The position numbers were made by a program, and so were the translations under genes. Shown here one piece after another: positions 1,794 to 52,705 of a stretch of DNA of 64,000 nucleotides (position 1 is its first letter; every line of letters starts with the position of its first letter). Under the pieces are notes generated by a model. The model saw nothing but the letters and a program-made list of their open reading frames with translations, made no database searches and was not told where the DNA came from. The stretch comes from an uncultured Nitrososphaerales archaeon (GTDB lineage Archaea; Thermoproteota; Nitrososphaeria; Nitrososphaerales; Nitrososphaeraceae), in contig CAVOHZ010000010.1 in NCBI GenBank assembly GCA_963695855.1, positions 1,312,001 to 1,376,000 of the forward strand, written 5' to 3'.

Positions 1794-1840
1794 GGGCTCG
1801 GAGGTGTGTAAACCTATTTTCACACAATTTTGTAGTTCAA
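1794..1840 (+). repeat. att-like dispersed repeat, GGGCTCGGAGG head, dyad tail type I
   Basis: gggctcggaggtgtgtaaacctattttcacacaattttgtagttcaa; close to the 4129 copy. Confidence 0.8.
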
Positions 1841-2047
1841 TTCTATGGTTATAATGGATATTAGTTGAATGTGATCATTTTCTATCTAAATAAGTTTTTT
1901 TAATTTTAAAATAGAGAGATTATAAATATGAATGAATGTAAAATAAGAACATTATTTTAGTATAGTGATAACTATTAGCTAGTATCCTTGACAATGCTTT
2001 ATACTTTATAGAAAAATGTATGACTAAGTGTTGCTTACTTATTTCCT

Positions 2048-3685
2048 ATGGATGAAAGAGAAGGGCAACCACACGAAGAGGAAAATATTCCAGCATCCGG
2101 TTTGAGTCCTTTTAGTTCGAGTCTGTACAGGACGTTGTGGATTGCTGCTCTCTTTTTATTTATTGGGGCAGCTATGTATGATGTAGGGGCGTCGTGGTTA
2201 ATGACTTCACTTGCTCCAAATCCTTTATTCGTTTCTCTGATCACAACAGCGACTACTCTACCAATTTTTCTCTTTGCATTACCATCTGGGACATTATCTG
2301 ATATTTTTGACCGGCGTAGAATACTCCTTATTTCATGTGCATACATGTTTACAATATCCACAATACTGGGAATGCTCACTCTTGTTGGTGTGACTACCCC
2401 AACGGTATTGTTGATACTTACTTTTGCGCTAGGAGCAGGTATGACTATGATTAGGACTCCAATTATTCCTATCATGACTGGACTAGTATCAAGCTCAGAA
2501 ATACCTTCTGCTCTCACCCTTAGTGCTGTTGCTGGTAACATAGGGCGTATCATTGGCTTTGCAGTTGGTGGTTTTATTGTAGCAGCAATTGCACCTTGGG
2601 CTGTCTTTTTTCTTAATTCAGCTTCATTTATTGGAATGATTATAGTCCTGAGTAGATTACCAAGAAAGTCTCATGTGAACCAACAAAGTTCTCTGCCTCC
2701 TGAGAATATAATTCGAGCTATTCGAGCTCAGATACGTTATGTACGCTATTCTCAAGCAGCACATGTATTAATAGTCCGTGCAGGTTTATTCACATTATGT
2801 AGTAGTGCATTATTATCTCTCTTGCCACTCTTAGCTAAAAATGAATTAGGACTTGATTCGACAGGTTTTGGACTTTTATTAGGATCTTTTGCTATGGGTG
2901 CAATAATTGGTGGAATTGTAATTTTGCCAAAATTGCGATCTAAGGTTTCAGTAGAATCTCTTATTACAGGTTCCATAGGGTTACTTGCAATGGTAATATT
3001 CACAACGGGATATATACGAGATTTTGCTATTCTTTGTATAGTCCTAGGGCTAGGAGGAGTAGCTTACATCACGATATTATCCAGATTTTATACCATTGGA
3101 ATGAAATCTGCGCCAAAGTGGATTGGAGCCAGAGTACTAGCAGTTTATCTGCTTGTACTAAATGGTGGTTTAGCAGTTGGAAGTATAATATGGGGTACAA
3201 TAGCTAACACATTTGGCATCCCAATCACCCTATCAGTAGCTTCGTTAGCCTTAGGTGCAACCATTATCGCTAGTAAGCGTTACAGCACTACTTTGTTGAA
3301 TGACCTCGATTTTACAGCAGCAAGTGACCACTGGTCACTTCCTTCTGAGCTCACAGTTGATCTTTCACAAAATGATAGTCAAGCCCTAATAACAATCGAC
3401 TATAAGATTGATCCTAAATTATCTGACGAGTTCGAACAGAGTGTACGTGAGTTAGGACGTATTCTTAAGAGCGAGGGAATGGCCTATTGGGAATTATTCC
3501 AGGACCCAGCAGATATTGGTCACTATATCGAAATCAGAATTGCAGATACATGGACTGACCATATGCGTCAGCATGAACGCGTTACCAAGAACGTTCAGAT
3601 TATGGAAGATAGAATCCGATTACTTCTCAAAGACGGCCCGCAACCAATAATCTCTCATTATATCGGAAAATCGACTCCTAAATAG
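2048..3685 (+). CDS. MFS transporter (MFS_3/DUF894 type with C-terminal soluble domain)
   Basis: About 12 TM segments; GTLSDIFDRRR motif A; C-terminal WELFQDP...W.DHMRQHER. Confidence 0.9.
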   Translation: MDEREGQPHEEENIPASGLSPFSSSLYRTLWIAALFLFIGAAMYDVGASWLMTSLAPNPLFVSLITTATTLPIFLFALPSGTLSDIFDRRRILLISCAYMFTISTILGMLTLVGVTTPTVLLILTFALGAGMTMIRTPIIPIMTGLVSSSEIPSALTLSAVAGNIGRIIGFAVGGFIVAAIAPWAVFFLNSASFIGMIIVLSRLPRKSHVNQQSSLPPENIIRAIRAQIRYVRYSQAAHVLIVRAGLFTLCSSALLSLLPLLAKNELGLDSTGFGLLLGSFAMGAIIGGIVILPKLRSKVSVESLITGSIGLLAMVIFTTGYIRDFAILCIVLGLGGVAYITILSRFYTIGMKSAPKWIGARVLAVYLLVLNGGLAVGSIIWGTIANTFGIPITLSVASLALGATIIASKRYSTTLLNDLDFTAASDHWSLPSELTVDLSQNDSQALITIDYKIDPKLSDEFEQSVRELGRILKSEGMAYWELFQDPADIGHYIEIRIADTWTDHMRQHERVTKNVQIMEDRIRLLLKDGPQPIISHYIGKSTPK

Positions 3686-3759
3686 TTCACTCGCCTACAT
3701 TGGCTCCACTTTTTTCCAGATATTTGAGTCAAAATTGCCATAATTTCATTATTCCTTTC

Positions 3760-3980
3760 CAATCTAAATTGCGGATCTTAGGAAAGAATTGAATTCTGGT
3801 TAAATATTAAGACTTAGACCATTTGGAAAAACACTACAATATGGCTTAGATAATGTAAAAATTGATCCCAAACATGGCTACGCTATATGGATAGAAGAGG
3901 ATTTATTGTACTCCTCCATTAGTCATGGAAAGAGAAAGTGTTCTTGATAAATATTTTGAGGATATTACAGTTCATCTTAT
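3760..3980 (+). pseudogene. Decayed conserved hypothetical protein
   Basis: Frameshifted pieces read PFGKTLQYGL...YAIWIEED / YCTPPLVMERESVLDKYFEDITV. Boundaries approximate. Confidence 0.4.
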
Positions 3981-4128
3981 TGCCTCAAAAAAAAGGCTAG
4001 ATAGGATTGACAATATTTCTGGACTTGACTAAATAGAATGGAATATTGAATTAAAAAAGAAAGCCAATAATTAAATCGTAAATTATTATTAAATGGAGCT
4101 TTAGATTTACAGATCGTTGCAATTATCC

Positions 4129-4175
4129 GGGCTCGGAGGTGTGTGAACTGATTTTGACACAATTTTGTAGTTCAA
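4129..4175 (+). repeat. att-like dispersed repeat, GGGCTCGGAGG head, dyad tail type I
   Basis: gggctcggaggtgtgtgaactgattttgacacaattttgtagttcaa. Confidence 0.8.
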
Positions 4176-4246
4176 AATAAATCATTTTTTAAAAAGAAAT
4201 AATCTTTTGATCTAACTTATAGTATTCTACTTAACTAATAATACTA

Positions 4247-4681
4247 GTGCCAGAAATGTCTAAAGATGAAATTAGAAATTTTCTTTTGCAAGGAACTTTT
4301 ACAGGAAAACTAGGAACAATTAACAAGAATGGGACACCACATGTAGTTCCAATATGGTTTACCCTAGACGATGAAGATAATATCATATTTAATACTGGTA
4401 GCAAATCCATAAAAGCAAAAAATATTCAACGTGACAATCTAGTTCGTTTATGTGTAGACGATCAAGTTCCACTTTTCTCATTTGTTACTATTGATGGTAT
4501 TGCAGAAATAATTAGTAATAAGCCAATTGAAATTTTTAAGTGGGCTAAAATAATAGCAGCAAGGTATATGGGTGATGATAAAGCAGAAGAGTATGGTAAG
4601 AGAAATAGTTCAGAAGGAGAACTCCTTTTAAAAATAAAACCAACCAAAGTTATTGGTCAAAAAGATATAGCAGGATGGTAA
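4247..4681 (+). CDS. PPOX-class F420-dependent oxidoreductase
   Basis: GKLGTINKNGTPHVVPIWF...KAKNIQRD..V.LCVDD. Confidence 0.9.
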   Translation: MPEMSKDEIRNFLLQGTFTGKLGTINKNGTPHVVPIWFTLDDEDNIIFNTGSKSIKAKNIQRDNLVRLCVDDQVPLFSFVTIDGIAEIISNKPIEIFKWAKIIAARYMGDDKAEEYGKRNSSEGELLLKIKPTKVIGQKDIAGW

Positions 4682-4770
4682 TTAATTCAACTTTTCATAA
4701 AGAATCTATTTTTTTTATCTATTCCAAATTAAATGTTAAAACATATTTCATAAGTGATTGATATTATAGT

Positions 4771-4787
4771 TGTTCTGAGTGCTTCGA
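4771..4787 (+). repeat. Degenerate att-like head only
   Basis: tgttctgagtgcttcga versus ggttctgagggcttcga. Confidence 0.4.
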
Positions 4788-4888
4788 CGATTACATTATT
4801 GAAATTTGTAAACTGGTATTCAGCTATTTGGTAACTTATTTTAAATACTCGTCATAAAATTTCTGATAGAACTATTAAGAAACAAAAG

Positions 4889-4936
4889 GAATTCAGTGGG
4901 ATTTGAACCCTTCTATCAAGTGGGACCAGTTATTTT
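4889..4936 (+). repeat. att-like repeat of second tRNA type (AGTGGGATTTGAACCC...GGGACCAG)
   Basis: Reverse complement gggttcaaatcccact is a canonical T-arm. Homologous to 31686-31727. Confidence 0.7.
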
Positions 4937-5320
4937 TGAATAAATATTATTATCTATCTATTCTTTAATTTTGCATTCTTATTTTGAATTTTTACTACTT
5001 TTGCTTATTGTTTTACGTTAAATACTCCACAACTATTATTTGCACATAAAATAACGATTCTAGATGGTATTGTGTGTGCCCTATAAATATATAGAGATAG
5101 ATATTACATTTCCAAAATCAAGAAAGAATGATTGTAATCCTTCTCGAATAAGAAGTTTTTTTAAGATGTATCATTTTTCTTAGATAACATAAAGTTAGGA
5201 ATCTGTCCGTACTTTAACCACCAAAATTGTAGTAAATTTATATCTTCTTAAGGAAACGATTATCAAACTTTTTCTATTTTAACCAAAAATCTTATCTCTT
5301 ACTTATCACTTTTTTATATA

Positions 5321-8224
5321 ATGTTAAATAACAAGACAGCTAAAAACTGTAATGACATTTTTTTAATTTTTGTTAGTATTAGTCTCATTATACCACTTTT
5401 GATGTTTTTTATTCCTGCATCATATGGTCAAGGCCCTGATGAACCTTTAGAGGAGATACTTAATGAAACTGTTAGTTCCTCAAATGCCACAGATCAACAA
5501 GGACTAGAAGAAGAACAACCACCATCAGAAGAACAACAACAACAACAAGAACAACAAACATGTCTTGAAGGTGAAGTACTCAATCTAGAGACACTGACAT
5601 GTGAGCCAGCTACAACAGTAGAAGGACTAGAAGAAGAACAACCACCATCAGAAGAACAACAACAACAACAAGAACAACAAACATGTCTTGAAGGTGAAGT
5701 ACTCAATCTAGAGACACTGACATGTGAGCCAGCTACAACAGTAGAAGGAGAAGGAGGAGAACAAGAACAAGTACCTGCAGCAAATACTACAGCAGAAACA
5801 ACAACAACAGATACTACAGGTACAGAAACAACTACTGATCAAAACCAAACAACAACAACAACACCAACAGACCTAGCAGAGCTAATAACAACTCAAGAAA
5901 CAACTACTGATCAAAACCAAACAACAACAACAACGCCAACAGACCTAGCAGAGATAATAACAACTCAAGAAACAACTACTGATCAAAACCAAACAACACC
6001 TAAAGCACCAATAACACCTAAAGCACCAATAACACCTAAAGCACCAATAACAGCTACTGATCAAAAACAAACAACAACAATACAGAAAGAGATCACCTGT
6101 AATCCCTCCGAGGAGTTATTGAAGAAAGGCTCTTCTGGAAATGCAGTTGAGACTCTACAAACTATTCTTCAAGGAATGGGTTATTATACAGATGACATAG
6201 ACCAAAAATTTGGACCAAATACTGAAAAAGCAGTTAAACAATTCCAAAAGAAAAATGATTTGAAGCCAATAGATGGTAAAGTTGGAAAAATTACATGGGC
6301 AAAGTTATGTGCATTATATAATAAGAAAAATATAGTCACACAACAACAACAACCAACGGCTACAGACTTAGAACAGCTAACAGTAACAGGCCAAAGCCCA
6401 CCAACAGCAACAGGAACAACTAGTACTGGTGCAGTAGCAACACCAAAAGCAACTAAACCTTTTTATCAATCACAACAGTTCAATTGTGATCCTAAATCTG
6501 CCACTTTGCAAGTTCCTGCAAAAGGGAATAAAGTTATAGAATTGCAGACATATTTGACTGACTTGGGGTATGGTGATTTACTAGACCCAGAAAAAATCGA
6601 TGGAAAATTTGGGCCACATACAAAAAATTCGGTAATGGCGTATCAAAAAGATTTTGGTTTATCTGTTGACGGAAAGGTTGGTCCTCAAACTTGGGGTTCG
6701 CTCTGTGAACAAATTTCATTGTTGCCTACAACATTTCATAAGAGTTCCGCAACAACAACATCAACACCAACCTCTGAAGATGGTCAAGCCAATACTGCTA
6801 CGCCTACTGGTGTAGTTCTGCAGTACTACTGTAGTCCCTCATCTCCCACTTTAAAGATAGAAGCAAAAGGATCAGCAGTTACTAACTTACAGAAGATACT
6901 AATAGATTTGGGATATGATGTTGGGTCTAATGGTGCTGACGGTGACTTTGGAGGAGATACTCAAAAAGCAGTCATAAAATTCCAGCAAGACAAAGGATTA
7001 GAGAAAGTTAACGGGGAAGTGGGACCAGAGACATGGGAGGCATTATGTGCAGCTGCATCTCCAGCATCTTCTACTACACCGGCAGCATCTTCTACTACAC
7101 CGGCAGCATCAGAGGTAGATTGTGATCCCTCAAACGCTGAGATAGTACATCCGAGTAAGGTATACCAAAAGGGAATGTGGTCGTTTACTTATGGAGTCTT
7201 TAAGGGGCAAGGATTAACCATAAAACCTCTTTTTGCTAACCACAACCTGCTTCTTGATAGCCTAAGTGTACCACACTTCAAAATCGATTATGGAGGAGGA
7301 AAATCAAAAATCGTAAGATTCTGCAACGATGAAAATACTTTTCCACCTGAGATTTTTAGCGAAGTCAACCAAGCAAAGAAAAAATATGACAGGTTAGAGT
7401 GGGGTTTTAAAAAGGTCATAAATGAGCCGGATCTGAAAGGAGTGTTGCATATTCTCTATAATATTATTATAAGAACAGATCCAGTGACCAACTGCGAATT
7501 CTCTACTGCCGAATGTTATAGATTTATACCGATGATCACATTCAGTTGGTCCGGATGGGCAGGAGTAGGTCAGGATCCTATTGGTCCACTTCCTGAAAAA
7601 TTTGACAAGTTTACAGTATTCTACAAGTTAGATTATGGCGAAAATTCTGGATTAGTAGAGTTTAGGGACTATAATTTTAACATTGCCAACCTTTATGCAA
7701 GTGGGTTCAGAGATTTCGTCCCAAATGAAATTAATCTACGAGCGGTAACAAATGGTCAAGAGGGAAAGACTGATAATTTTCATAATGCACACTTGGGGCA
7801 GGATGTCATGCTTCCAGGATGTAGATCAACAGCTGGAGATTGTCTCCATATTCATTGGAGGTGGGGAGATATGACTCCTACGATAGATCCTTTGGTCGAC
7901 ACAGTAACTGATATGCCAGTGGATGACAGCAAAGAAGGTAAACCATATCTGGTTCCAGGACAAACTATTGATGTCACAATAGCTAGATATCATCCTCAGG
8001 AGGCGTTTTCCACGGATCCAACCACATTAGTTAACGGTGAGATAGTTGGTTCTACAAAAAGAGAAGATTATCCAGATCCAGCGACGGGGTTGCCTCCTGT
8101 AAGCGTGATTCGTACGCTCGCTTCTTCACAACATCCCGTTGTCTGGTACATGGCATCAGTGTCAGATTCAAACGAGAACGAGTTTTTCAGACATGGAATG
8201 TTTGTCTTAGACAGCACAAAATAA
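5321..8224 (+). CDS. Secreted/surface protein with three PG_binding_1 domains, Thr/Gln-rich repeats and an unknown C-terminal domain
   Basis: N-terminal signal/TM segment. Three copies of L..G..G..V..LQ..L...GY.....DG.FG..T..AV..FQ....L..DG.VG..TW..L. Confidence 0.88.
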   Translation: MLNNKTAKNCNDIFLIFVSISLIIPLLMFFIPASYGQGPDEPLEEILNETVSSSNATDQQGLEEEQPPSEEQQQQQEQQTCLEGEVLNLETLTCEPATTVEGLEEEQPPSEEQQQQQEQQTCLEGEVLNLETLTCEPATTVEGEGGEQEQVPAANTTAETTTTDTTGTETTTDQNQTTTTTPTDLAELITTQETTTDQNQTTTTTPTDLAEIITTQETTTDQNQTTPKAPITPKAPITPKAPITATDQKQTTTIQKEITCNPSEELLKKGSSGNAVETLQTILQGMGYYTDDIDQKFGPNTEKAVKQFQKKNDLKPIDGKVGKITWAKLCALYNKKNIVTQQQQPTATDLEQLTVTGQSPPTATGTTSTGAVATPKATKPFYQSQQFNCDPKSATLQVPAKGNKVIELQTYLTDLGYGDLLDPEKIDGKFGPHTKNSVMAYQKDFGLSVDGKVGPQTWGSLCEQISLLPTTFHKSSATTTSTPTSEDGQANTATPTGVVLQYYCSPSSPTLKIEAKGSAVTNLQKILIDLGYDVGSNGADGDFGGDTQKAVIKFQQDKGLEKVNGEVGPETWEALCAAASPASSTTPAASSTTPAASEVDCDPSNAEIVHPSKVYQKGMWSFTYGVFKGQGLTIKPLFANHNLLLDSLSVPHFKIDYGGGKSKIVRFCNDENTFPPEIFSEVNQAKKKYDRLEWGFKKVINEPDLKGVLHILYNIIIRTDPVTNCEFSTAECYRFIPMITFSWSGWAGVGQDPIGPLPEKFDKFTVFYKLDYGENSGLVEFRDYNFNIANLYASGFRDFVPNEINLRAVTNGQEGKTDNFHNAHLGQDVMLPGCRSTAGDCLHIHWRWGDMTPTIDPLVDTVTDMPVDDSKEGKPYLVPGQTIDVTIARYHPQEAFSTDPTTLVNGEIVGSTKREDYPDPATGLPPVSVIRTLASSQHPVVWYMASVSDSNENEFFRHGMFVLDSTK
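5501..5746 (+). repeat. 123-bp intragenic tandem duplication (41 aa x2)
   Basis: Units start at 5501 and 5624. Further 63-bp and 15-bp Thr/Pro-rich repeats follow at about 5825-6050. Confidence 0.9.
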
Positions 8225-8653
8225 TGAAGCAAACTGTGACTCCTTACATCATCGAAACGATTCTCCATACTAAAGGTTCCTGGGGTAGTCCCTGTCAGCC
8301 CCCTACAGCCGTGCGATAGAAAAGGTAGAGGATACCTTGAACACATTTATAGCCCATCCTCAACTGTTAAGCCAGAAAGAGGTCATTTTCAAGAGCCGTT
8401 ACTTTATATGGGTAACATAAAATAATAAAATGGAGCTCCTTTACATATGAGTTCTTTTTTTTGTAAGTCTAGAATTACCTCATCATTACTATGACTAATA
8501 TTATGTACAGTAAAACTTTGAGCCATTATTTGTTGACAATCGTAATCATGTTGTTACTTGTTTATAAGAACTATGTGTAATAACATGAACAGTACGGAGG
8601 ATATAGGATATAATACCTACCTTTTGAAATTTATTATTATTCTTAAAATAGAT

Positions 8654-9706
8654 TTATAATTTTTGTGGCGTCGTTATCAGTTTTCCAAATAATTGTGATT
8701 CCATCATTTTTATGTGACCCATTACCATATTTTCAAAAGGATAAACTGTATCTATTATTACTTTTAATTTTCCTTTGTTTATCCATTTAATAACTTCATC
8801 TAGTTCTGCACGACTTCCTTGGGTAAATCCAAGAATATTTAGACCTCTAAAGAAGAGATATCTCAAGTCTATTTCTGAATCATATCCTGTTGTTGCTCCT
8901 GTAGATACTAAAGTTCCACCCATTTTTAAGAGGCTAACTTCTTTTGGAAATACAGATTTACCTGTATGTTCAAAAATAACATCTATGCCTCCTTGATTAT
9001 TTGTTAAATTTCTAACTTTCTTGTACCAATCAGGTTCTCTATGGTTTACAACATGATCAGCACCTAATTCAAGACATTTATCCATTTTTTCCTGTGAACC
9101 AGCCGTAGCAATAACATCACAATTGAATAACTTTGCAATCTGAATACCTGCTATTCCCATACCACTTCCGCCTCCCATAATCAAAACGGTTTGCCCTGGT
9201 TGAATATTAGCTCTAGTAACTAACATGTGCCAAGAAGTTACTCCCACCATAGAAATAGCTGCTGCATCTTCAAACGAAACATTATCAGGAACTTTTATAA
9301 CATTGACTTCTGGTAAATATGTATATTGAGCAAATCCTCCCCATAAAGGACCTGTTTGAAAACCCCATACTTGTCTATGACGACAATCATATTCTTTTCC
9401 AGAAGTACATTCCTTACATATTCTACAGGTTAAAGTAGAATGCCCCACTATTCTATCTCCTATTTTAATATCTAAAACATTTTCTCCCACATCTACTACT
9501 GTACCTGAAACATCACTCCCAGAAATGTGAGGAAGAGGAATCTTAATAGGTTCTCCCCATATTCCCCAAAGATCATCATAATTATAAGAAGCTGCTTCAA
9601 CTTTTATAAGAACTTGGTTATGCTTGATTTTCGGAATTTCTATCTCTTCTATTTTTACAACTTTTCTTGGATCTTTATTATGTTCATGATATACAGCTGC
9701 CTTCAT
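8654..9706 (-). CDS. Zinc-binding MDR alcohol dehydrogenase/enoyl-reductase family
   Basis: PHISGSDVSG; structural Zn CRICKEC...C; GGGSGMG. Thaumarchaeal family that includes acryloyl-CoA reductase candidates. Confidence 0.9.
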   Translation of the reverse strand: MKAAVYHEHNKDPRKVVKIEEIEIPKIKHNQVLIKVEAASYNYDDLWGIWGEPIKIPLPHISGSDVSGTVVDVGENVLDIKIGDRIVGHSTLTCRICKECTSGKEYDCRHRQVWGFQTGPLWGGFAQYTYLPEVNVIKVPDNVSFEDAAAISMVGVTSWHMLVTRANIQPGQTVLIMGGGSGMGIAGIQIAKLFNCDVIATAGSQEKMDKCLELGADHVVNHREPDWYKKVRNLTNNQGGIDVIFEHTGKSVFPKEVSLLKMGGTLVSTGATTGYDSEIDLRYLFFRGLNILGFTQGSRAELDEVIKWINKGKLKVIIDTVYPFENMVMGHIKMMESQLFGKLITTPQKL

Positions 9707-9980
9707 TTCACTAAAAAATATACAATAGGAAATTTAAAGAATAGGTTTACAAAGTATTAAAAAATAATTATCACAAGAGAAAAAAAAACAATCTGCAACG
9801 ATAAATCTAAAGTAATTTAAAGCAAGAAGGAGATTGTAAAAAATCTGCCTGTTTGTAAATTAAGAGAGTTAATTGGATATCATATCCTCGGTTATTAGTA
9901 ATATATTACAAAATATATTTTGCGTTTGAATTGAATTTAGTTATATAACAAAAACTTATAGCTGTAAAGAGACGATAATC

Positions 9981-10009
9981 AACTGATTTTGACACAAATT
10001 TGTAGTTCA
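9981..10009 (+). repeat. Half copy of type I tail (head lost)
   Basis: aactgattttgacacaaatttgtagttca. Confidence 0.7.
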
Positions 10010-10192
10010 CAAAAAAGAAATAGTTTATCAAATTTAAGTCTGGCAACATTGCTGCACTGCATTAACTGCAAAATTTACTAATAAAATTTCTTACAGGTGA
10101 TACGTTAGACATTTCGCCAGGGATATCTTCAGATTTATAATTCAATCTAGTAACCTATTTTGTTTCAAAAAATATTATGGTTTTGATTTAAT

Positions 10193-10552
10193 CTAGACAA
10201 TACTTTTACTTACTAATTTTTTGCTTTGCCATAAACCAAAAGTATTTTGTTGCTGATCTTGTAATGTAGCATAAAAACCTTCAGATATCTCCTTTTTGTT
10301 AATTAACATCTTTGCACCTTGTTTTTGAGATTTAGTTATAAAGTCATCTATTGATTCTACCATAATATAAAATGTAGGAGTTTGATTATTTTCTCTTTTT
10401 GAAGTTATTGCTCCTTTTATTCCAGCATTTTTTATTAACCAATACTTTCCTCCTCCTCCTCCTCCTCCACTTTTCTCAAATTTCCAGCCAAACATATTCG
10501 AATAGAATTTTTTTGTTTCTTCAATGTTGTCTGTTGGTATTTCTATATATCT
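10193..10552 (-). pseudogene. VOC/glyoxalase family protein with damaged 5' end
   Basis: Frame extends upstream as YIEIPTDNIEETKKFYSNMFGW with no usable start; C-terminus D...NTFGLWQ. Confidence 0.7.
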
Positions 10553-10581
10553 ATCCTATTTGATATAATTACATAATAGTA

Positions 10582-10986
10582 ATGAAACATCAGGTAATCA
10601 TTCCACAATTTGTAAGTAATGAATCTTTTAGAAATTATATTCCGCAAACTGTCAAAATTCAAAAAGGAGATGCTATAACATGGATCAATACGGATAATGA
10701 ATCTCACCATCTATACTTTGTTAAAATTGATCCTGACCCAACAAATATTGAAGTATTAGATGAAAAGCTGTATCTAAACTCTGGAGAATTAGGAGAAGTT
10801 ATTTTTAATTATAATTATGAACGAATAGATTATGTATGTAAAATGCATAGAAGAGAAGTTAATAGTATTACTATTTTTACTGAAGACTATGAAAATATGA
10901 GCAATATTCAAAGATTAAGATATCTTCATAAGAGATATAATATCAAGATTCCCAACCTGTCAAGCTATCTTGATGGAAATAGATAA
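10582..10986 (+). CDS. Cupredoxin-like domain protein without signal peptide
   Basis: YIPQTVKIQKGDAITWINTDNESHH...DYVCKMH. Confidence 0.7.
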   Translation: MKHQVIIPQFVSNESFRNYIPQTVKIQKGDAITWINTDNESHHLYFVKIDPDPTNIEVLDEKLYLNSGELGEVIFNYNYERIDYVCKMHRREVNSITIFTEDYENMSNIQRLRYLHKRYNIKIPNLSSYLDGNR

Positions 10987-11000
10987 TTGGTGTAAATATA

Positions 11001-11759
11001 ATGGCTAATCAGAATATTACAGATAATGATCCTTATTCTAAGGAACAACTAAGTATGTATTTTGATCCATTCATATACAAACATATTAAAGAATTAAAGT
11101 TAGATGGAATCAACCTCAATAAATTCATTATTGTATTTTGGGATATAAGTAAATTTTCTGCCTTAAATAAAGAATTAAAAGCATTAATGAAAAAACGAAT
11201 GAAAAAACATGGTCTTATATTTCATGAACTAGAATACTTATTAAGAGATTATTATAGTGAAGCAACAAGGGTGATAAAAAAAAATAATGGGATATTGGAT
11301 AAATTTATAGGTGATGGAATTTTTGCTTATTTCGGTTACCAAGATAAAAAATTTGATATAGTTTATTCAAAAGCAATGGATGCTGCTTTAGAGTTAAAGA
11401 TGAATTTTATAAAAATTAAGGAAAAACATATGAAAATTTTATATTCTCATTATGATTACAAACCTACTACCAATATAAATTTGAAATGTGCCATGCATAT
11501 TGGTCAAGTTCTGTTTGGATATTGGTATTCGCCTCTTCGAAGTCAGATTACTGCTATTGGAGATGATGTTAATTTCTGTAGTAGACTTGAGGGATTTGCT
11601 GATAATGATCAAATTATCATTTCAAAAGAGTTGAATAATGCATTAAGTAAGATAACTAACAATACATTTAGAACTAAAAAAATAAAAATACCAGATGATA
11701 AGAAATTGAAAACTTATGAACATGTTAATTATGTTTATGAGTTAATAGGCAAAAAATAA
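11001..11759 (+). CDS. Class III adenylate/guanylate cyclase
   Basis: VFWDISKFS; DKFIGDG; TAIGDDVNFCSRLE. Confidence 0.9.
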   Translation: MANQNITDNDPYSKEQLSMYFDPFIYKHIKELKLDGINLNKFIIVFWDISKFSALNKELKALMKKRMKKHGLIFHELEYLLRDYYSEATRVIKKNNGILDKFIGDGIFAYFGYQDKKFDIVYSKAMDAALELKMNFIKIKEKHMKILYSHYDYKPTTNINLKCAMHIGQVLFGYWYSPLRSQITAIGDDVNFCSRLEGFADNDQIIISKELNNALSKITNNTFRTKKIKIPDDKKLKTYEHVNYVYELIGKK

Positions 11760-12339
11760 GCAAATTCTAAATTGAATATTTATGAACATTACGATTCAAT
11801 GCTTTTAGTTGAAGGATTTGTTAAAGAAGATGTTATTTTATAATATTGGTTCCCTATTTTGAATTTTGATCAATATATTATATAATTATATACTAGTATA
11901 AGAATACTTAATGTATGCAAATAATTGCAATTCTTTTTGTTATTAGACCTCAATAGTTCCCTAATCGGTATTCATTCAATAATACTCTAGCGAATCATTA
12001 TCTTTACTAAATAATAGCATTGGTTTATCCAAGAGTACATCTGGCTCTGAACCTGATTACATTTGGCTTTTGGAATAGGCTGTTAACTTTTTAATACTTT
12101 TTTGGACTACAAAAATCTTTTTCTAAAAAATTCTAGATAGACATATTTATGAATACCTTTTTTTAATATTCGATTCTGTTCTTTTACTAGTTGTAGAATA
12201 CTGATATTCATTAATTATTTATTTTTAATTATTGTTATTAGCATTATTCTTATTATTATTTTTAAATTATTGAAAGTGTTAAATATACTAAAAAGATAAG
12301 GTTATATTTTATAGTTTTTTATCCACGTTTAATTTCTTT

Positions 12340-12628
12340 CTATATACTTCTCTGGAGATATACAGAACAGGCAATAAAAAAATGTAAGAGACTCTCCAAA
12401 AAGAGTTAATATTTTTAAATCCAAGTTAGAAAATACTGGAGGTAAACTATAGAAACATATTATACGTTTGGTAAATATGATGGGGTATCAATAGTGGAGA
12501 CTCCTAATTATGAAGCATTGATGTGTTGTCTATTGTCTATTGGAAGTCAAGGTAATGCACTTACTGTAACTTTAAAAGCCTTTATCTATGATGAAGCTAC
12601 TAAAATAATTGAGAATATACAACAATAA
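12340..12628 (+). pseudogene. GYD-domain protein remnant
   Basis: Pieces KLENTGGKL* and GKYDGVSIVETPNYEALM...GSQGNALTVTLKAF. 5' boundary approximate. Confidence 0.6.
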
Positions 12629-12729
12629 TCCAAAACTTTCATTTCGCGTTATTTATATCTTCATATAATCTTGAATTTATTTGTTATAAGAAACAAAAAA
12701 CGCATTGATAATGACATTATTAGAATATG

Positions 12730-12780
12730 GGGTTCTCAAGGTTTCGATTTCTCATTATGGGAGGGTTTGGTAACATAATA
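12730..12780 (+). repeat. att-like dispersed repeat, tail type II (degenerate)
   Basis: gggttctcaaggtttcgatttctcattatgggagggtttggtaacataata; homologous to 15256 and 16919. Confidence 0.7.
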
Positions 12781-13254
12781 TTTAAGTTTTGGAATAAAGT
12801 TTATAGCTAATTTCGGTTAATTTTGAAATTCATTGCAATAACAATTCAAAGCAGGACGTGTGAGTTGAAGGCTCAGTTCGCTGTCTTACTTTTTGATTCT
12901 TCATAAGATACCAAATTGAATTGAAGGTATTTTTGGTTTCGAATTTTCAAATTTTTATTAGTCTTGCGCCAGTGGTTATTTTCAGAAAAATTAAGATACT
13001 GATAAATGATATCATGCTGTTGATTTTCAAGTACCAAGATAAAATGAGTTTAATGTACATGTTACAAGATATGCTGATATTTCTGAGTGCAGAATTGATA
13101 TTCAAATGACAATTACTATGATAGACAAATAGATAGATGGAGAATCTAACAAATAAGACTTTGTATAATGACCTAATTCACTACTACACTTTTTAGCCCC
13201 TGCTACTGATTACAAAGATATTCAAAGTAAATAAATATCTGCAAATTTTATTTA

Positions 13255-14562
13255 TTATCTATTCTTAGTTTGGAAACGTATTGGCAAATGTGATAATCCA
13301 AGGAAAAGAGAACTTTTGAGTGGAGTAACTTTAGTATATAGATCTTGTTTACCATTATAATCAAAATTAAGTTGAAGATTATCAAATCTTTCAAGAAGTA
13401 TTCTTAATGCTATTTGTCCTTCAAGTCTAGCTAAAGGAGCCCCTAAACAAAAATGAATTCCAGTTCCAAAAGCCATATGACGTAGGTTTTTCCGAGTAAT
13501 ATCAAATCTTTCAGGATCTATAAATACTGATTCATCATGGTTGGCAGAACCCAAAAATAATATTATCTTTTGACCTTTCTTTATTTCTTGTTTCTCCATT
13601 TCTTTTCCTTCTCCTCTTTTTCCTTCTCCTTCTTCAGATAAAGTTACATCATCATTTGCAATACGAATTACTAATTGTACTGGTGATCGATATCGTAAAG
13701 TCTCTTCTATTGCAGGTTTGATTAAGGAATTTCTATTCTCTTGTAATCTTTTAAATTCTTGAGGATTCTCAAGTAACGAAAAAATCGAATTTCCTATTAG
13801 ATTAACTGTTGTAATATGTCCAGCATTTAAAAGAAGATGAGAAAAAGTAAGTATTTCTTTTTCAGATAACGAATGTCCATCTACTTTAGCTCTAATGATA
13901 CGACTGATAAGATCATCCTCATCATTTGTTGAAGAATTTATCTTTTTTTTTCTCTCTTCTATTAATTTGCCAAAATAAATATCCATTTCATCAATAGTTT
14001 TGGATACTTTTTTAATGTAATCAATATCGCTATTTTCTTCAAGACCTACTATCACATCTGCCCATTGATGGTAAGTATCTCGATCTTCAGATGGTACTCC
14101 AAGGAGTTCTGCAATTACAGTTGCAGGTAAAGGATAAGCAAAATCTGATATCAAGTCCATTGTATTCGTAGTACTATTATTACCATTATTTTTTTCAATG
14201 ATCTTATCAATCAGTTCATTTACAATATTTTCAATATGTGGTTCTAATTTAGATATTTCTATTGGAAAAAATAATGTATCAACAATACTACGCAGCTTTC
14301 TATGATATGGAGGATCTGAGGTTATAAGACTTGGTCGGTGAATATTTTCTTCATATTCGACGGGTGTTCCTAGAGGTAAATCAAGTGGACCAAATTTACT
14401 GGAAAACTTTGAAGGATCTTTTAATATTTTTTCAATATCATTATAACGATATACTCCCCATCGTTCATTTTCTTTATCAAAAACAATGGGATTGTTTTTT
14501 CTCATTGATGAATAAAATTCAAAAGGTGAAAATCTTTGTTCTATTGGAGGATATATTTCCAT
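13255..14562 (-). CDS. Cytochrome P450
   Basis: DPPYHRKLR; I-helix AGHITT; EETLR; FGTGIHFCLGAPLAR. Confidence 0.95.
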   Translation of the reverse strand: MEIYPPIEQRFSPFEFYSSMRKNNPIVFDKENERWGVYRYNDIEKILKDPSKFSSKFGPLDLPLGTPVEYEENIHRPSLITSDPPYHRKLRSIVDTLFFPIEISKLEPHIENIVNELIDKIIEKNNGNNSTTNTMDLISDFAYPLPATVIAELLGVPSEDRDTYHQWADVIVGLEENSDIDYIKKVSKTIDEMDIYFGKLIEERKKKINSSTNDEDDLISRIIRAKVDGHSLSEKEILTFSHLLLNAGHITTVNLIGNSIFSLLENPQEFKRLQENRNSLIKPAIEETLRYRSPVQLVIRIANDDVTLSEEGEGKRGEGKEMEKQEIKKGQKIILFLGSANHDESVFIDPERFDITRKNLRHMAFGTGIHFCLGAPLARLEGQIALRILLERFDNLQLNFDYNGKQDLYTKVTPLKSSLFLGLSHLPIRFQTKNR

Positions 14563-15196: not shown

Positions 15197-15255
15197 TTTT
15201 GTTAGACCTTCAATATTATATTCCTTCCACCAGTATATGAGCCCAATTGGTTGAG

Positions 15256-15306
15256 GGGTTCGGAGGGCTTCGAATTCTCATTATAACAGGGTTCGGTAAC
15301 ATAATA
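15256..15306 (+). repeat. att-like dispersed repeat, tail type II
   Basis: gggttcggagggcttcgaattctcattataacagggttcggtaacataata. Confidence 0.85.
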
Positions 15307-15373
15307 TATCAAGGTATTATTATCAAAATGTAACTATCACGTATAGTCATTATTCATTAAAAAGAAACTAAAC

Positions 15374-16854: not shown

Positions 16855-16918
16855 TTCTTTATTAGATGACCTCCATCATTATCTTCCACTTACTAGTATA
16901 TGAGCCCAATTGGTTAGC

Positions 16919-16969
16919 GGGTTCGGAGGGCTTCGAATTCTCATTATAACAGAGTTCGGTAACATAATA
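16919..16969 (+). repeat. att-like dispersed repeat, tail type II
   Basis: Differs from the 15256 copy at one position over 51 bp. Confidence 0.85.
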
Positions 16970-17520
16970 GATAAAGTTTATTATTTCATAATTTTATGAA
17001 TAACAATTCAATAGTGAAGTTGATTTGCAGATTTAGTTCAATGTCTATACTTGAGAGTTTTATTCTGGAAACATTTTTGGTATTCCCTCATTTTCAATTG
17101 AAGATTCATTCAATTAATAAAATTTTTTTATATGTTCAGAAAAGATTAATGAAAAAAATATAATGTTAAACTAAATAATATGGGATCATTAAATACAATA
17201 TTCTAATTTTTTATTGCAATGTGAAATTAATCTTTTTACGTCTTCATATGTGGAAATTCACTTGGATGAATATATGTTTTATATGTTCATAACAAAAATG
17301 CTTAGAACGAATAGAACATTGATTTATAGTTGATTCTGACAATTAGGAATTGCACAAACAGGCATTTTATTGAATTTATCATCTTTTCTTTCTTAGATCA
17401 ATTACTGGACTCATATGGGATATATTTAGAAAAAGATAGTTAAATTTGCTCTTTATCACTATTGCGATATCACAATTTTGAAGAAGGATATGGTTTTAAG
17501 ATAATAATTAATTAAGATGA

Positions 17521-19239: not shown

Positions 19240-19320
19240 TTAATTAGTCATTACCAGACATTTACTAATGGTAAAGGTTAGACAATATCTAATATTATTG
19301 CTATAGGTAGAACTCATTTT

Positions 19321-35581: not shown

Positions 35582-35594
35582 AGAGTTGAATATT

Positions 35595-42206: not shown

Positions 42207-42254
42207 GGGCTCGGAGGTGTGTGAATTGTTTTTGACACAATATTTTTGGCCCAT
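42207..42254 (+). repeat. att-like dispersed repeat, GGGCTCGGAGG head, dyad tail type I
   Basis: gggctcggaggtgtgtgaattgtttttgacacaatatttttggcccat. Confidence 0.8.
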
Positions 42255-44280: not shown

Positions 44281-44333
44281 TAGCTGTGAATGTCTTGCTT
44301 GTTTTTTATTTTATGATAGTATTCTTAAATTTA

Positions 44334-45238
44334 GAGCCTATCCCAAAAATAGATAGGAATATAGCTCGTTTGTTTCTTATCATATCTGATAATGTTTAAG
44401 AGTAAAAAGTATGTTAGAACAATTACACGCATTCCAGATGATCTATGGAATGAAATTAAAAATATTTTGCCAGATGAAAAGCCAGAGAACACTATAGGTC
44501 GTCCAATTGTTCCATATAGAAAAGTGTTTGATGGTATCATGTTTATCCTGAGGACTGGATCTCAGTGGAAAATGTTACCAATATAATATGGTTCTGGTTC
44601 TACATGCCATAGAAGATTTCAGGAATGGAGAGAATTAGGTATTTTCGATATACTATGGACTAGCTTACTAAAAATATATGATAACAAAAAAGGAATCAAA
44701 TGGTCATGGCAATCACTCGATAGTATATCTGTAAAATCGCCTTTAGGGGGGGGGGCGAAGACAGGCCATAATCCTACTGACAGAAGCAAATTAGGCAGTA
44801 AAAGACATATTCTTACAGATAAAGATGGTATTCCATTGTCTGCTGTTATAACATCTGCCAATACTCATGATGTTACTGTTGCAATTGATACAGTTGACAG
44901 CACAGTTATCAAAAGACCATCATTATTATCCAAACCAAAGCATAACCAAATGAAACAGAATCTGTGCCTTGATAAAGCATATCATTCCAAAGAAGTAGAA
45001 CAAGAAATTATCAAAAGGGGATACATACCACATATACGACACAGAAGAGAAGAAGAAGAAAGAATATTTCATAGAAAACATCCCACAAGAAGATAGGTAG
45101 TTGAGAGAACTAATTCATGGCCTAACAGATTCAGGAAATTATTTACAAGGTATGAAAAGAAGGATAAAGACTATCTTGGTCTTGTACAATTAGCAAATAG
45201 CATAATTGTTTATAGGAGGATAATTTTGGGATAGGCTC
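44334..45238 (+). mobile_element. Full-length IS5-family element with 15-bp TIRs, TTA target duplication and inactivated two-ORF transposase
   Basis: gagcctatcccaaaa / ttttgggataggctc; TTA at 44331-44333 and 45239-45241; nonsense codons at 44584 and 45094. Confidence 0.95.
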
Positions 45239-46264
45239 TTAATTATTCTTCCAATCATTTACAAGCAAGTCCATAGCTCCATCATTTATGATTGTATTGT
45301 AATTTGAAGGATTTCGATAACCCATGTAACCACAATGGTTATCTCCCCATGTTGGAGATAAATCAAATTCTAGACAGTCCCAAAGATAATTTGCATCTGC
45401 ATCATACAAATAAGGGGGTATCTCATATCTAACGTTATACTCTGAATAATAATTTTCGGCTGGTGTTCGTATACCAGATTCACTTCCTTTTAAGCCCAAT
45501 GCCGAATCTGGTTCAGCTTCAGGATAAGATCTTTGTAACAGATTGTCTTCTGGATTATATAAATTATAGAATTTTTCCACAACTTTTTCTATAGGTTTAC
45601 CAGAACATGATAATTGAGGTTGATTAGATATACAATCTGATGCGTCAATGGATACTTGCTCATCATCAATGGCAGCACCTAAAAGATGAATCGATGAAAT
45701 TCTAAAATTTAATAGAGGCTCATTAAATAGACTGTTGATTGCTGAAAAAGTAACTCGTGAACCAAGTGAATGAGCGATAATTCTCAAATCAGTATCAGAG
45801 CATTTACCTTTGAAATCTAAAATAAATTGTGCAAGTTTCTTGCCATTTGCATTCGCTATTTTCTTACCTTCTTCCCATCCTCCAGTAAAATCAAAAAATG
45901 AAGGAGGAGCTAAATTAGAATCCCATGTGAAGCTAATAACAGGTATTAAATAGTTCTTATCTCTAAGAACTAAATTTATTCTATCAGATTCTTCTTGAGC
46001 TTGATCTTCATCACGTAAAAATCCATGAACATATATTACGGATTCACCAGGACAATTTCCTATCTGTAATCCTGGAACATTAATAGCGTTATATTCATTT
46101 ATTGTATAATCCGGTTTTAACTCTCCACTATCAAGATCAAAGTGATTACGTGTAGAAACCTTAATAGAAGATTCTTGTGAAATAGATGAATCCAAAGGCA
46201 GATTAATAAATATTGATGCGGCCATTAATATAATACATATTAAAACGATATTATTGTTTATCAT
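45239..46264 (-). CDS. Secreted alpha/beta hydrolase (DUF726/DUF900-like)
   Basis: Signal peptide; YVHGF; AHSLGSR; HLLGAAID; NHCGY. Confidence 0.85.
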   Translation of the reverse strand: MINNNIVLICIILMAASIFINLPLDSSISQESSIKVSTRNHFDLDSGELKPDYTINEYNAINVPGLQIGNCPGESVIYVHGFLRDEDQAQEESDRINLVLRDKNYLIPVISFTWDSNLAPPSFFDFTGGWEEGKKIANANGKKLAQFILDFKGKCSDTDLRIIAHSLGSRVTFSAINSLFNEPLLNFRISSIHLLGAAIDDEQVSIDASDCISNQPQLSCSGKPIEKVVEKFYNLYNPEDNLLQRSYPEAEPDSALGLKGSESGIRTPAENYYSEYNVRYEIPPYLYDADANYLWDCLEFDLSPTWGDNHCGYMGYRNPSNYNTIINDGAMDLLVNDWKNN

Positions 46265-46339: not shown

Positions 46340-46389
46340 ATGGGACCAGTGGTTTGTGAATTGTTTTTGACACAATATTTTTGGCACAT
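46340..46389 (+). repeat. att-like repeat with GGGACCAGTGG head and type I tail
   Basis: atgggaccagtggtttgtgaattgtttttgacacaatatttttggcacat. Confidence 0.8.
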
Positions 46390-46911: not shown

Positions 46912-46997
46912 GCTTGACGGTGATTTTAATTTTGTTATAATCTTTTAGTAACTTTTTTGTATATTTTTTTCAAAGTATATGTTCCTAATTGGTTAAC

Positions 46998-47050
46998 TGG
47001 CTCTAAGGGCTTCGAGTCCAACATGTAGTTGGGATCTGTAAACTATTATT
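46998..47050 (+). repeat. att-like dispersed repeat, tail type II
   Basis: tggctctaagggcttcgagtccaacatgtagttgggatctgtaaactattatt. Confidence 0.75.
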
Positions 47051-47281
47051 TATTAATTTAGTAACTTATTAAAATATATCCAAGCTTTAGCTGAGTATAT
47101 AATATTATGAGAAACATGGGAGAAGGATAAGCGATATATTACAGATAGGACTAATGAATATGATTACACAACTGTTAACACAGCTCTATTTTAGGATTGA
47201 AAGCAACCCAAACAAATATCTAAGAATGCATTTTCTTTTGATTTTAATCATGCTAGTGTGTCAAAAGTTGTAGTTTCAAAC

Positions 47282-47456
47282 CTATTTTAGTCAAATTCAA
47301 ACGGTGTCAAAAAATTATACTATTTTAGTCAAATTCAAACGGTGTCAAAAAATTATACTATTTTAGTCAAATTCAAACGGTGTCAAAAAATTATACTATT
47401 TTAGTCAAATTCAAACGGTGTCAAAAAATTATACTATTTTAGTCAAATTCAAACGG
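47282..47456 (+). repeat. Perfect 38-bp tandem repeat, 4.6 copies
   Basis: ctattttagtcaaattcaaacggtgtcaaaaaattata at 47282, 47320, 47358 and 47396; partial copy at 47434. Confidence 0.95.
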
Positions 47457-47664
47457 AATCGAAGGTCGCACATCCTCGAGCTCCCCAGAGACAACCACAA
47501 AGAACGGTGCCCCGGTGTCCCTGCTCATAGGACACTTCGCCACCATTCATCGCACGTATGTGTCCATGCGCTGCAATGCGAGTAAGCTGTGCTGGCGTTA
47601 ATTTCGGAAATATTTGTTCAATACGAGAGCTGATTATAGGAAGTCCCCTGCGCGTATTTGACAT
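47457..47664 (-). pseudogene. Truncated 5' paralog of the cNMP-domain thioredoxin-reductase-like gene
   Basis: MSNTRRGLPIISSRIEQIFPKLTPAQLTRIAAHGH versus MSNIRKGLPLTSSLIEKIFPKLTPAQIRRIAAHGH at 59307. Confidence 0.85.
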
Positions 47665-51153: not shown

Positions 51154-51443
51154 AATAGGAATGATAACGAAAGTGAATAAAAGTAGAGTACACATATTTA
51201 CTATGGATTAACCAAGTGTGAAATATTGAAATATGGTGGTTAAATCACATGATTCACGATTCAATCATCTAAATTACAATCTTATTTTTTTATCGTTTAA
51301 TAATTTGATTATATTCTTTGTATATACTATCTGTATCGTTAACAGTTTAATACAATATTAAGAATCTATTATTGAGATTATAAATATTAGATTTTATTAT
51401 ATAATGTAATACATAAATATTAAGAATACTAAAGGAAACTTAA

Positions 51444-51614
51444 ATGGCTATCAACAAGGAGCCAAAGAGTCTAGGTATGCCTTGGGAAAAAGAATACGAT
51501 TACGCCCAGGCGGTCAAAGTTGGAGATACTATTTATCTATCGGGACAGGTAAGTCATGATGATGAGGGCAATATCATGGGTCTATTATATAGATTCACTC
51601 GAAACAAAAAATAA
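51444..51614 (+). pseudogene. RidA-family N-terminal fragment
   Basis: PWEKEYDYAQAVKVGDTIYLSGQV; truncated. Confidence 0.75.
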
Positions 51615-51980
51615 AATCATTAGAAGAGAAATATAAAAAAGAGATACAATCGATAAAAGAAGAGATTGAGAATAAATTCAGCTGATACTATCAAAAATAA
51701 AATTAAAAAAATTTGTCTAACAACAACTTTAATTCTTTGGATAAAGACAATTAATTGAAGATAATATATATTGAAAAAAACTTTATGAGATATAATCCCT
51801 AAATTCGAAAAGTATTTCAAATTCAAGTAAATATTTCTATATAAGAAACAAAATCAAGGTCACATTTGTTATATCTTTGTCTATTGATATTTTTTGCAAT
51901 TAAATTTTATAACTATTAAAATACAATTTGAAGGAGAAATTCAATTCCCGTTGATAGTATTCTTCTAATTGTTACTTTTA

Positions 51981-52481
51981 TTATGTAGCCTTTTTCTTTG
52001 ACATTTCTGCGCAGAAACCTTCGGCTGCTTTTTTAATCTCATCTAGAGAAAGGTCTTTCTTATGAGTTGCTATTGACCATTGATATCCAAATGGATCTTT
52101 TATCGATCCAACACGGTCTCCCCAGAATGCATCGTTGACTGGGTGTACTACAGTGGCACCTGCAGATACAGCCTGATTAAAAGTTGAATCTACATCATTG
52201 ACATATAGATAAAGCCAAACTGGATTTCCTCCAACAGATTGAGGTGAAAAAGATTTCATTTCTTGGGATTCCTCAGATAACATAATAGCAGAATCTCCTA
52301 TTATAATTTCTGCGTGCATGATAGTCTTATTATCAGGTCCATACATGCGATGACGTTCTTCCGCATTGAATGATTTTTTATAAAATTCTATTGCACGTTC
52401 TGCATCTTTTATGATTATAAAAGGTGTAATGGTATGGTAGCCATCTGGTACTGGTTTTACATTAGCTGTCATATTTGTCAT
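51981..52481 (-). CDS. VOC/PhnB-family glyoxalase
   Basis: PDGYHTITP; AIEFYK..F; DAFWGDR.G..KDPFG..W. Confidence 0.92.
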   Translation of the reverse strand: MTNMTANVKPVPDGYHTITPFIIIKDAERAIEFYKKSFNAEERHRMYGPDNKTIMHAEIIIGDSAIMLSEESQEMKSFSPQSVGGNPVWLYLYVNDVDSTFNQAVSAGATVVHPVNDAFWGDRVGSIKDPFGYQWSIATHKKDLSLDEIKKAAEGFCAEMSKKKAT

Positions 52482-52656
52482 AATTATTATTACTTTATTT
52501 AAAAATATCCTAAAGAGACTAAATAGAAAATATTTTAAAAGAATTCTAATAATTTAGGTTTAGTATATTAGACTATACTCTCATTGTAAGGAGAATTTGT
52601 TCTGTTTGGTTTTAAACTACATATTACGAATTAATTTCACATCCATAAAACTTGGG

Positions 52657-52705
52657 ATGGGACCAAAATTCATGTCAAATTTGTTGCACATCCCACTGGC
52701 CCCAT
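52657..52705 (-). repeat. att-like palindromic repeat with GGGGCCAGTGGG head and type I-like tail, inverted orientation
   Basis: Minus strand atggggccagtgggatgtgcaacaaatttgacatgaattttggtcccat. Confidence 0.7.

Follow-up and report, generated by a model that had tools for sequence, protein, structure and literature searches.

Integrative elements of Thaumarchaeota insert at very short attachment (att) sites, with a median length of 17 bp and down to 8 bp; 39 of 68 such sites lie in tRNA genes, nearly all 3'-distal, and arrays arise when one site is used repeatedly (Krupovic et al. 2019, PMC6563490). The tycheposon islands of Prochlorococcus also adjoin tRNAs, with newer elements displacing older ones inwards (Hackl et al., bioRxiv 10.1101/2020.12.28.424599). 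Here we analyzed a stretch of 64,000 nucleotides (the window) from an uncultured Nitrososphaerales archaeon, which corresponds to positions 1312001-1376000 of contig C10 in the 3.55-Mb genome G000 (about 31% G+C) and contains a family of repeated sequences, the Type I sites, in which an 11-13-bp head identical to a tRNA 3' end is typically joined to a conserved tail of about 35 bp bearing the dyad GT(G/C)AA-N6-TTGAC. Contigs C6, C7, C8 and C10 belong to G000, and G003, G010 and G035 are genomes of its relatives.

The locus resembles the Thaumarchaeota elements in having tyrosine integrases, 3'-distal tRNA targets, intron-bearing ones included, very short att sites and arrays formed by re-use, and differs from them by dozens of sites per tRNA that bound mostly integrase-less units of 1-8 kb and by a conserved dyad arm common to elements with different tRNA targets (PMC6563490). 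With the tycheposon islands it shares the location beside a tRNA, fragmented integrases, scattered partial tRNAs and a cargo of adaptive metabolic genes (bioRxiv 10.1101/2020.12.28.424599). Unlike tycheposons, the host is an archaeon rather than a cyanobacterium and the identity with the tRNA spans 11-13 bp instead of about 40 bp, the likeness drawn here being one of island layout. Attachment sites at tRNA ends are of an already known kind, and the locus stands out by an arm common to several tRNA targets and by the extent to which sites outnumber integrases. The name 'Nitrosocosmicus' does not occur in the main text of PMC6563490, and a literature search of limited coverage returned no papers on these sites in this genus.

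We propose, with a probability of about 0.68, that the Type I sites are the att junctions of small integrative elements inserted at tRNA 3' ends by integrases of one family, designated IntArg, and that they punctuate an accretion island. Four points are shown by the data: the identity of the heads, the positions of the integrase genes, how the sites are distributed, and the existence of an indel with a site at either end.

The heads consist of the final 11-13 bases of genuine tRNA genes in reverse complement, and the tRNA-type character that the initial annotation had ascribed to them holds more literally than was meant. The 11-nucleotide head GGGCTCGGAGG corresponds to the 3' end of tRNA-Arg(TCG) at C10:1147352-1147426, 165 kb upstream. 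A scan of the genome for this sequence with up to one mismatch yielded 24 matches, namely the tRNA-Arg itself, two other tRNAs, six chance or coding-like matches and 15 sites, two of which lie on C7, a contig that duplicates C10 and was excluded from the family counts. A second family has the head TGGGGCCAGTGGG (12-13 nucleotides; at 46341, TGGGACCAGTGG), which equals the 3' end of the intron-bearing tRNA found at C8:91508-91603 and of a second locus on C6, and about 30 copies of it are present, mostly in one orientation along C8:91-173 kb. This C8 tRNA was not recognized by Rfam, which gave only an 18-nucleotide T-arm match to tmRNA; intron-bearing tRNAs fit an archaeal host. The 3' ends of other tRNAs are likewise present many times, followed in each case by a tail of their own. 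The tRNA end GGGCCCGTCGGGA, for instance, was found with up to one mismatch in 24 copies, the tRNA itself included (C8:2734-2821 and 23 other places), most of which continue into GTAA(C/T)ACCGATAGCGGTGC, a different tail with a small dyad of its own (CACCG-ATAG-CGGTG), and integrases 58-61% identical to IntArg lie beside two of these copies.

In the window, the sites and the integrase remnants beside them are the following, where T1 denotes the Type I tail (variants T1a and T1b), and T2 and T3 denote tails that keep the tRNA T-loop bases (GCTTCGA...).

289..349, plus strand: tRNA-Arg head (GGGCTCAGAGG) followed by a T3 tail (GCTTCGAGTA...) keeping tRNA T-loop bases
1794..1839, plus strand: Type I (T1a) site (profile E 3.7e-06) with head GGGCTCGGAGG at 1794-1804, GTAAA at 1808-1812, spacer CCTATT, TTCAC at 1819-1823 and a tail running through GTAGTTCA
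4129..4174, plus strand: T1a site (profile E 9.3e-12) with the head at 4129-4139, GTGAA at 4143-4147, spacer CTGATT at 4148-4153, TTGAC at 4154-4158 and the tail ACAATTTTGTAGTTCA
9981..10010, plus strand: T1a tail with a decayed head (ATCAA-CTGATT-TTGAC...; profile E 0.0069)
12730..12790, plus strand: degenerate T2-type site (GGGTTCTCAAGG...)
14988-15188, minus strand: IntArg-like N-terminal stump just left of the 15256 site
15256..15316, plus strand: integrase-proximal arm (TATATGAGCCCAATTGGTTGAG), head GGGTTCGGAGG and T2 tail
16501-16710 and 16648-16854, minus strand: integrase stumps beside the 16919 site
16919..16979, plus strand: integrase-proximal arm, head and T2 tail, arranged as at 15256
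42207..42254, plus strand: T1b site with a tRNA-Arg head, GTGAA-TTGTTT-TTGAC and the tail end TTTTTGGCCCAT, the 10-mer TTTTTGACAC standing immediately ahead of the head
46341..46389, plus strand: T1b tail, identical to that of 42207 at 35 of 37 positions, joined to the second-tRNA head TGGGACCAGTGG
46996..47052, plus strand: degenerate tRNA-Arg head (TGGCTCTAAGG) with a T3-like tail
51902..52698, minus strand: glyoxalase unit, 96.7% identical to C8:96247-97036
52657..52705, minus strand: site of the second-tRNA family, ATGGGGCCAGTGGG-ATGTGCA-ACAAAT-TTGAC...TTGGTCCCAT, heading the single-gene glyoxalase unit

The initial annotation had located an inner dyad, AGGTGTGTGAA-CTGATT-TTGACACAATT, at about 4137-4164, with variants at 1794, 42207 and 46340, and all of them are present as claimed, the first exactly at 4137-4164 with 8 of 11 arm positions complementary. 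The pattern GGTGTGTGAA-N4-TTTTGACACAAT, allowing up to three mismatches, matched four times in the window (1803, 4138, 42216 and 46351, all on the plus strand), against a mean of 0.00 in shuffled sequences and none of 100 shuffles with four matches. Also borne out were the nearly identical tails with different heads (42218-42254 and 46353-46389, with the unlike heads GGGCTCGGAGG and TGGGACCAGTGG) and the 49-bp imperfect palindrome at 52657-52705, which a profile search identified as a minus-strand member of the site family (E 2.5e-11). One tail combined with different tRNA heads was observed in the window, in the rest of the genome and in metagenomes, and the modularity proposed for heads and tails stands and extends to the left flanks. 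In the alignment of the glyoxalase unit with its C8 counterpart, four differences fall in the tail part and none in the next ~200 bases shown. An alternative head, TAGGCGCTCAAACGGAGG, preceded by ...TTATACG, replaces the tRNA-Arg end before the T1 tail at the metagenome loci L049, L051 and L056, at about position 123211 of contig C11 of G035 and at C10:1241883.

The integrase ORF (open reading frame) of 436 aa that we call IntArg begins 59 nucleotides past tRNA-Arg (C10:1147485-1148795). It scored 28.1 bits in one search against PF00589 and 26.3 bits in another (cut-off 27.1), and a phmmer comparison with PDB sequences gave no match at E <= 0.01. The ARP, KT, RHS, W and RY positions, which we take to be the catalytic set of tyrosine recombinases, are conserved in all six of the six IntArg family members, together with a C-terminal CxxC...CxKC, and these proteins resemble phage-type integrases with a zinc ribbon. 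IntArg-family genes, pseudogenes or N-terminal stumps directly adjoin the left (prefix) side of sites that belong to three different tRNAs; in every case GTATATGA(A/G)CCC precedes them and they read away from the site, a position that identifies the left flank as the integrase-proximal arm and the tail as the far arm. An intact IntArg homologue is found behind tRNA-Arg in G010 (74% identity) and in G003 (59%), and six of the seven readable tRNA-Arg loci of relatives carry one of three recurring flank types behind the tRNA. The integrase element beside tRNA-Arg also encodes a 455-aa SIR2_2-domain protein (C10:1150377-1151744, equivalent to L002:4377-5744), possibly a defence gene.

That the sites are related to recombination, as had been supposed from the dyad, was supported by comparison with a relative. 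Contig C11 of G035 is collinear with C10:1.192-1.274 Mb at 88-97% identity, and a segment of 3.25 kb (C10:1241904-1245157), bounded in C10 by two T1 sites, is absent from it; at that place G035 carries a single hybrid site whose left flank is that of the left C10 copy and whose right flank is that of the right copy. This was the one clean site-bounded case among nine indels inspected against G035, the other eight not being site-bounded on both sides, although one of these eight starts exactly at a tail end. Contig C7 (10 kb) matches C10:1151998-1156400 with 100% identity for 4,403 bp and departs from it precisely where a T2 tail has its outer end; it may represent either a second locus or a second state of the one that adjoins the tRNA-Arg integrase element. 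All 24 relatives searched carry the cargo modules found at window positions 1-10100 (ABM at ~1303-1775, MFS at ~1845-3715, PNPOx at ~4122-4787 and ADH at ~8603-9782), but in different orders and on different contigs. In the relatives' loci L013 and L015 an ORF of about 110 aa precedes the MFS gene, and in the window a 5'-truncated copy of it (3776-4110) follows this gene just before the next site, a displacement indicating that the unit was locally rearranged. Soil metagenome contigs aligned with window positions 1-20000 start or stop at 4128/4129, 4173-4177 and 15308/15309, which is also expected from any multi-copy repeat, and joints linking 16917-16919 to 4128-4130 come from mixed-organism contigs and would be yielded by any such repeat as well; each metagenome run compared with the window holds at most 0.49 of the sampled words.

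The distribution of the sites extends far beyond the window. The profile search of the genome gave 69 matches at E < 10, of which 49 include the dyad part (C7 left out). GTGAA-N6-TTGAC matched 23 times, a tRNA-type head being present at a fixed upstream distance in 17 of them, and other spacers of 3-10 gave 2-13 matches. Among genomes of the same genus, 15 of 18 contain the pattern GGNNTGTGAA-N6-TTGAC, with 1-46 copies each, as does one of 12 other genera of the order, the reversed-pattern control giving no matches in all 31 genomes searched, and the T1a tail pattern was found in at least 131 metagenome contigs. The genes between the sites are accessory: the ORFs of the window encode MFS transporters, alcohol and short-chain dehydrogenases, P450, alpha/beta hydrolases, glyoxalases, FMN reductase, MgtC, thioredoxin-like proteins and insertion sequence (IS) transposases, in both orientations, and the arrays on C8 and adjoining tRNA-Arg have the same appearance. 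No neighbour protein family recurs among the 424 ORFs around the 49 sites, where only scattered cargo paralogues were found. The window itself contains no tRNA genes according to ARAGORN and no Rfam matches at the gathering threshold.

The symmetry of the dyad was then considered in 32 Arg-type copies (G000 without C7, plus contig C11 of G035) and 20 copies of the second family. In the Arg-type copies the inner five arm pairs are complementary in 21-30 copies and arm pairs 3-6 in only 1-12, and the central inner pair is C-G in 21, G.G in 4 and A.G in 3. In the second family, G.G occupies the central pair of 17 of 20 copies, and the outer pairs 1-4 and 6 are complementary in 0-5. In 71 distinct metagenome sites, which were selected by the right half of the site, the fixed G faces another G at 52 sites, a C at 13 and an A at 6. 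Family-wide symmetry is limited to a 5-6-5 core, and the 11-6-11 geometry that the initial annotation had read from the window, with only 5 bp per arm symmetric across the family, is not supported. No two-sided compensatory change was found at any position in the 32 and 20 copies, an outcome that the same annotation had named as refuting its reading. This lack of compensatory changes rules out a selected hairpin and is still compatible with a double-stranded protein-binding site. When both strands of five window sites were folded as DNA, the minimum free energies ranged from -2.7 to -7.7 kcal/mol (z +0.44 to -2.65), and only one of the 10 strand folds was matched or bettered by fewer than 5 of 200 shuffles, so that the idea of attC-like folding is not supported, nine of the folds being no better than shuffled sequence.

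The point of exchange would lie outside this symmetric core. Site 46340 shares its tail with 42207 and with C8:192531 but has another head, and in both pairs the switch falls at the head-tail boundary, left of the entire dyad. Of the two halves of the head, the 3' one (CGGAGG) is preserved in 50-63 of the 71 metagenome sites and the 5' one (GGGCT) in 39-52, its place being taken elsewhere by recurrent classes with at least two other sequences. Because the switches lie left of the dyad and the 5' half of the head is replaced while the 3' half is kept, these alignments indirectly suggest a crossover within the head; linking site polymorphisms to flank types by eye in the same 71 sites was too noisy to locate it.

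These data are consistent with the following model. The left flank, where intact, would be the integrase-proximal arm, with the motif GTATATGA(A/G)CCC and an integrase gene pointing away; the 11-13-bp head would be the core shared with the target; and the tail of about 35 bp would be the integrase-distal arm, made up of GT(G/C)AA-N6-TTGAC and then ACAATTTTGTAGTTCA or a relative of it. Within an array each junction would join arms of two neighbouring elements, and such combinations of neighbours' arms explain why prefixes, heads and tails look modular. Related elements and their integrases would have been retargeted to different tRNAs, so that one tail is found with two heads. Strand exchange would take place in the head, with the integrase binding both of its flanks. 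The predicted contact on the tail side is the left arm of the dyad, a core-type site at the position of the tRNA T-loop (ATGTGAA versus ATTTGAA in the second family). On the prefix side, a TTGAC or GTTNAC-type motif stands right before the head in many intact prefixes (GGTTGAC followed by GGGCTC, or, at 42207, TTTTTGACAC followed by GGGCTC). This motif and GT(G/C)AAC flank the head as an inverted pair, and the motif may be the second integrase contact. The TTGAC located 6 bp further and two TTTTG repeats are additional predicted binding sites, for the integrase or for a directionality factor. Serial integration at the regenerated target would push older units inwards, and integrase genes would decay, most units losing theirs, while recombination from site to site would delete, invert and reshuffle the units. 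The outcome would be an island of more than 200 kb composed of cargo units of 1-8 kb, the window included.

Several observations weigh against this model. There is no intact integrase in the window, and an IntArg-like stump was present at only 2 of 64 metagenome loci with more than 600 nucleotides on the prefix side. No empty tRNA-Arg target was identified among the seven readable loci of relatives, a search for the distal end of the integrase elements in relatives gave no second head or tail within 15 kb in G003 or 4.6 kb in G010, and neither tail pattern matched any viral contig, so that no free or viral form was found. The sites are direct relative to the tRNA in the C8 array (91-173 kb) and at C10:1147-1170 kb, and all Arg-type sites from C10:1217385 to 1354207, those of the window included, are inverted relative to tRNA-Arg, which obliges the model to assume an unseen inversion. 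Depending on the pair of copies compared, homology ends ahead of the head, at the head-tail boundary or past the tail. Finally, the tail, which has a sharp end, is better conserved than the tRNA-derived head, which points to selection on the tail or to its frequent renewal, unlike what passively decaying scars would show.

The scarcity of stumps, the conservation of the tail, the inverted sites and the missing empty target, free form and far end keep alive a reading that we consider unlikely, in which the arrays are not debris but a working, integron-like gene-capture system served in trans by a few tRNA-adjacent IntArg integrases. Hundreds of integrase-less cassettes of one to a few genes would then be excised, captured and reshuffled, each tagged by a site of about 50 bp that combines a mimic of the tRNA 3' end with the GT(G/C)AA-N6-TTGAC arm, and selection on this arm would account for its conservation above that of the head. 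The att sites of streptococcal integrative and conjugative or mobilizable elements delimit cis-mobilizable elements that arise by site-specific accretion. As in those elements, the units described here are flanked by att sites, lack recombination genes and may have been made by accretion, and by analogy a related integrase could move them in trans; unlike in streptococci, no conjugation genes are involved. The arrays also resemble integron cassettes in that one recombinase gene heads an array of short cargo units with imperfect-palindrome sites and in that the order of the cassettes varies between relatives. Unlike integron attC sites, they have no AAC/GTT ends, no stable fold, genes in both orientations and a core that is a tRNA 3' end.

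It is improbable, in our estimation, that the dyad GT(G/C)AA-N6-TTGAC is instead a core of dif or lox type, with two recombinase monomers on the arms, exchange in the 6-bp spacer, an enzyme acting in trans and the left side swapped. Such a core would fit the few discrete spacer classes that recur across species (CTGATT, CTGTTT, ACAAAT and TTGTT(T/A)), the perfect GTCAA/TTGAC pair formed by the arms in 21 of 32 Arg-type copies, the great excess of sites over integrase genes, and the fact that the two sites bounding the 3.25-kb indel have unlike left flanks (an Arg head and another head) and share mainly the tail. Like dif sites and the Xer-dependent pdif modules, the sites consist of an imperfect inverted repeat around a 6-bp spacer, and many of them are without a recombinase gene of their own. 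Against it, the left arm is the less conserved one and carries the central G.G mismatch in 17 of 20 second-family and 52 of 71 metagenome copies, the 42207/46340 and 46340/C8:192531 pairs switch left of the dyad, and the identity with the tRNA target lies outside it. Moreover, no XerA-class recombinase was found in the genome (NF040815, whose cut-off is 220 bits, scored 64 bits at best and had no match above the cut-off), and the sites, only 5 bp per arm symmetric and joined to tRNA ends, amount to 49 dyad copies instead of one per replicon. The study describing the 11-6-11 geometry of Xer/dif also reports that Thaumarchaea are devoid of xerA (Cortez et al., PMC2958812), and the Xer/dif analogy drawn from the window is not supported.

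Decidedly improbable, too, is a mainly regulatory or insulating role of the tail, either as the operator of a dimeric protein or as a T-tract terminator against read-through, that would move with the cargo. The conservation of the tail above the head, its sharp end and its two T4-T5 tracts would agree with such a role, as would the glyoxalase and PNPOx genes that begin 70-220 nucleotides past a tail on the same strand and the frequent pairing of one tail with one downstream cargo leader despite varying left flanks. However, tail and tRNA head stand at an invariable distance, another tRNA family has its own dyad in this position (CACCG-ATAG-CGGTG), sites bound an indel, and the 424 ORFs around the 49 sites include no conserved neighbour gene. 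Scarcely credible, lastly, is that the sites act as folded single strands like attC, the outer arms (ATGGGGCCA/TGGTCCCAT, tRNA acceptor-like) and the inner arms forming a bulged hairpin, because, although outer and inner inverted repeats lie concentrically around the spacer in 52657-52705 and about a dozen related sites, the conserved inner-stem mismatch recalls the extrahelical bases of attC and the sites punctuate an array of cargo units, the DNA folds are weak, compensatory double changes are missing from the two copy sets, the head swap at 42207/46340 loses the outer pairing, which is never restored, the Arg T1a tails are without any outer partner, and neither the gene orientations nor the ends are those of integron cassettes.

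Other repeats are present in the window. An IS of about 1 kb with a DDE_Tnp_1 transposase of 298 aa (33682-34723) has at least 11 further copies in the genome at 98.7-99.9% identity and older copies at 70-95%. Four dispersed repeat families, represented at 28635-28920, 30332-30657, 44324-45245 and 61284-61904 (about 285, 320, 920 and 620 bp), have dozens of copies each, at 70-95% identity and on most contigs, and the 285-bp unit is the end of the 920-bp unit. At 47244-47471, beginning 200 bp past the degenerate site at 46996, about six 38-bp units (CTATTTTAGTCAAATTCAAACGGTGTCAAAAAATTATA), three of them perfect, are arranged head-to-tail, and each contains GTCAAA and GTGTCAAAAA, similar to the arm motif of the sites. 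An ORF of 967 aa at 5321-8224, with in-frame tandem repeats of 123 bp and 72 bp at 5499-6078, encodes three peptidoglycan-binding domains, which is unexpected in an archaeon.

Taken together, the reading of the Type I sites as att junctions at tRNA 3' ends offers a testable account of how this archaeon would take up and shuffle accessory genes such as those for transporters, oxidoreductases, hydrolases and defence by means of stacked tRNA-tail units. The arm of about 35 bp is a handy sequence tag for finding such units in genomes and soil metagenomes and, if the integrase-less units are mobile in trans, they would be an archaeal counterpart of integrons or of tycheposon islands.

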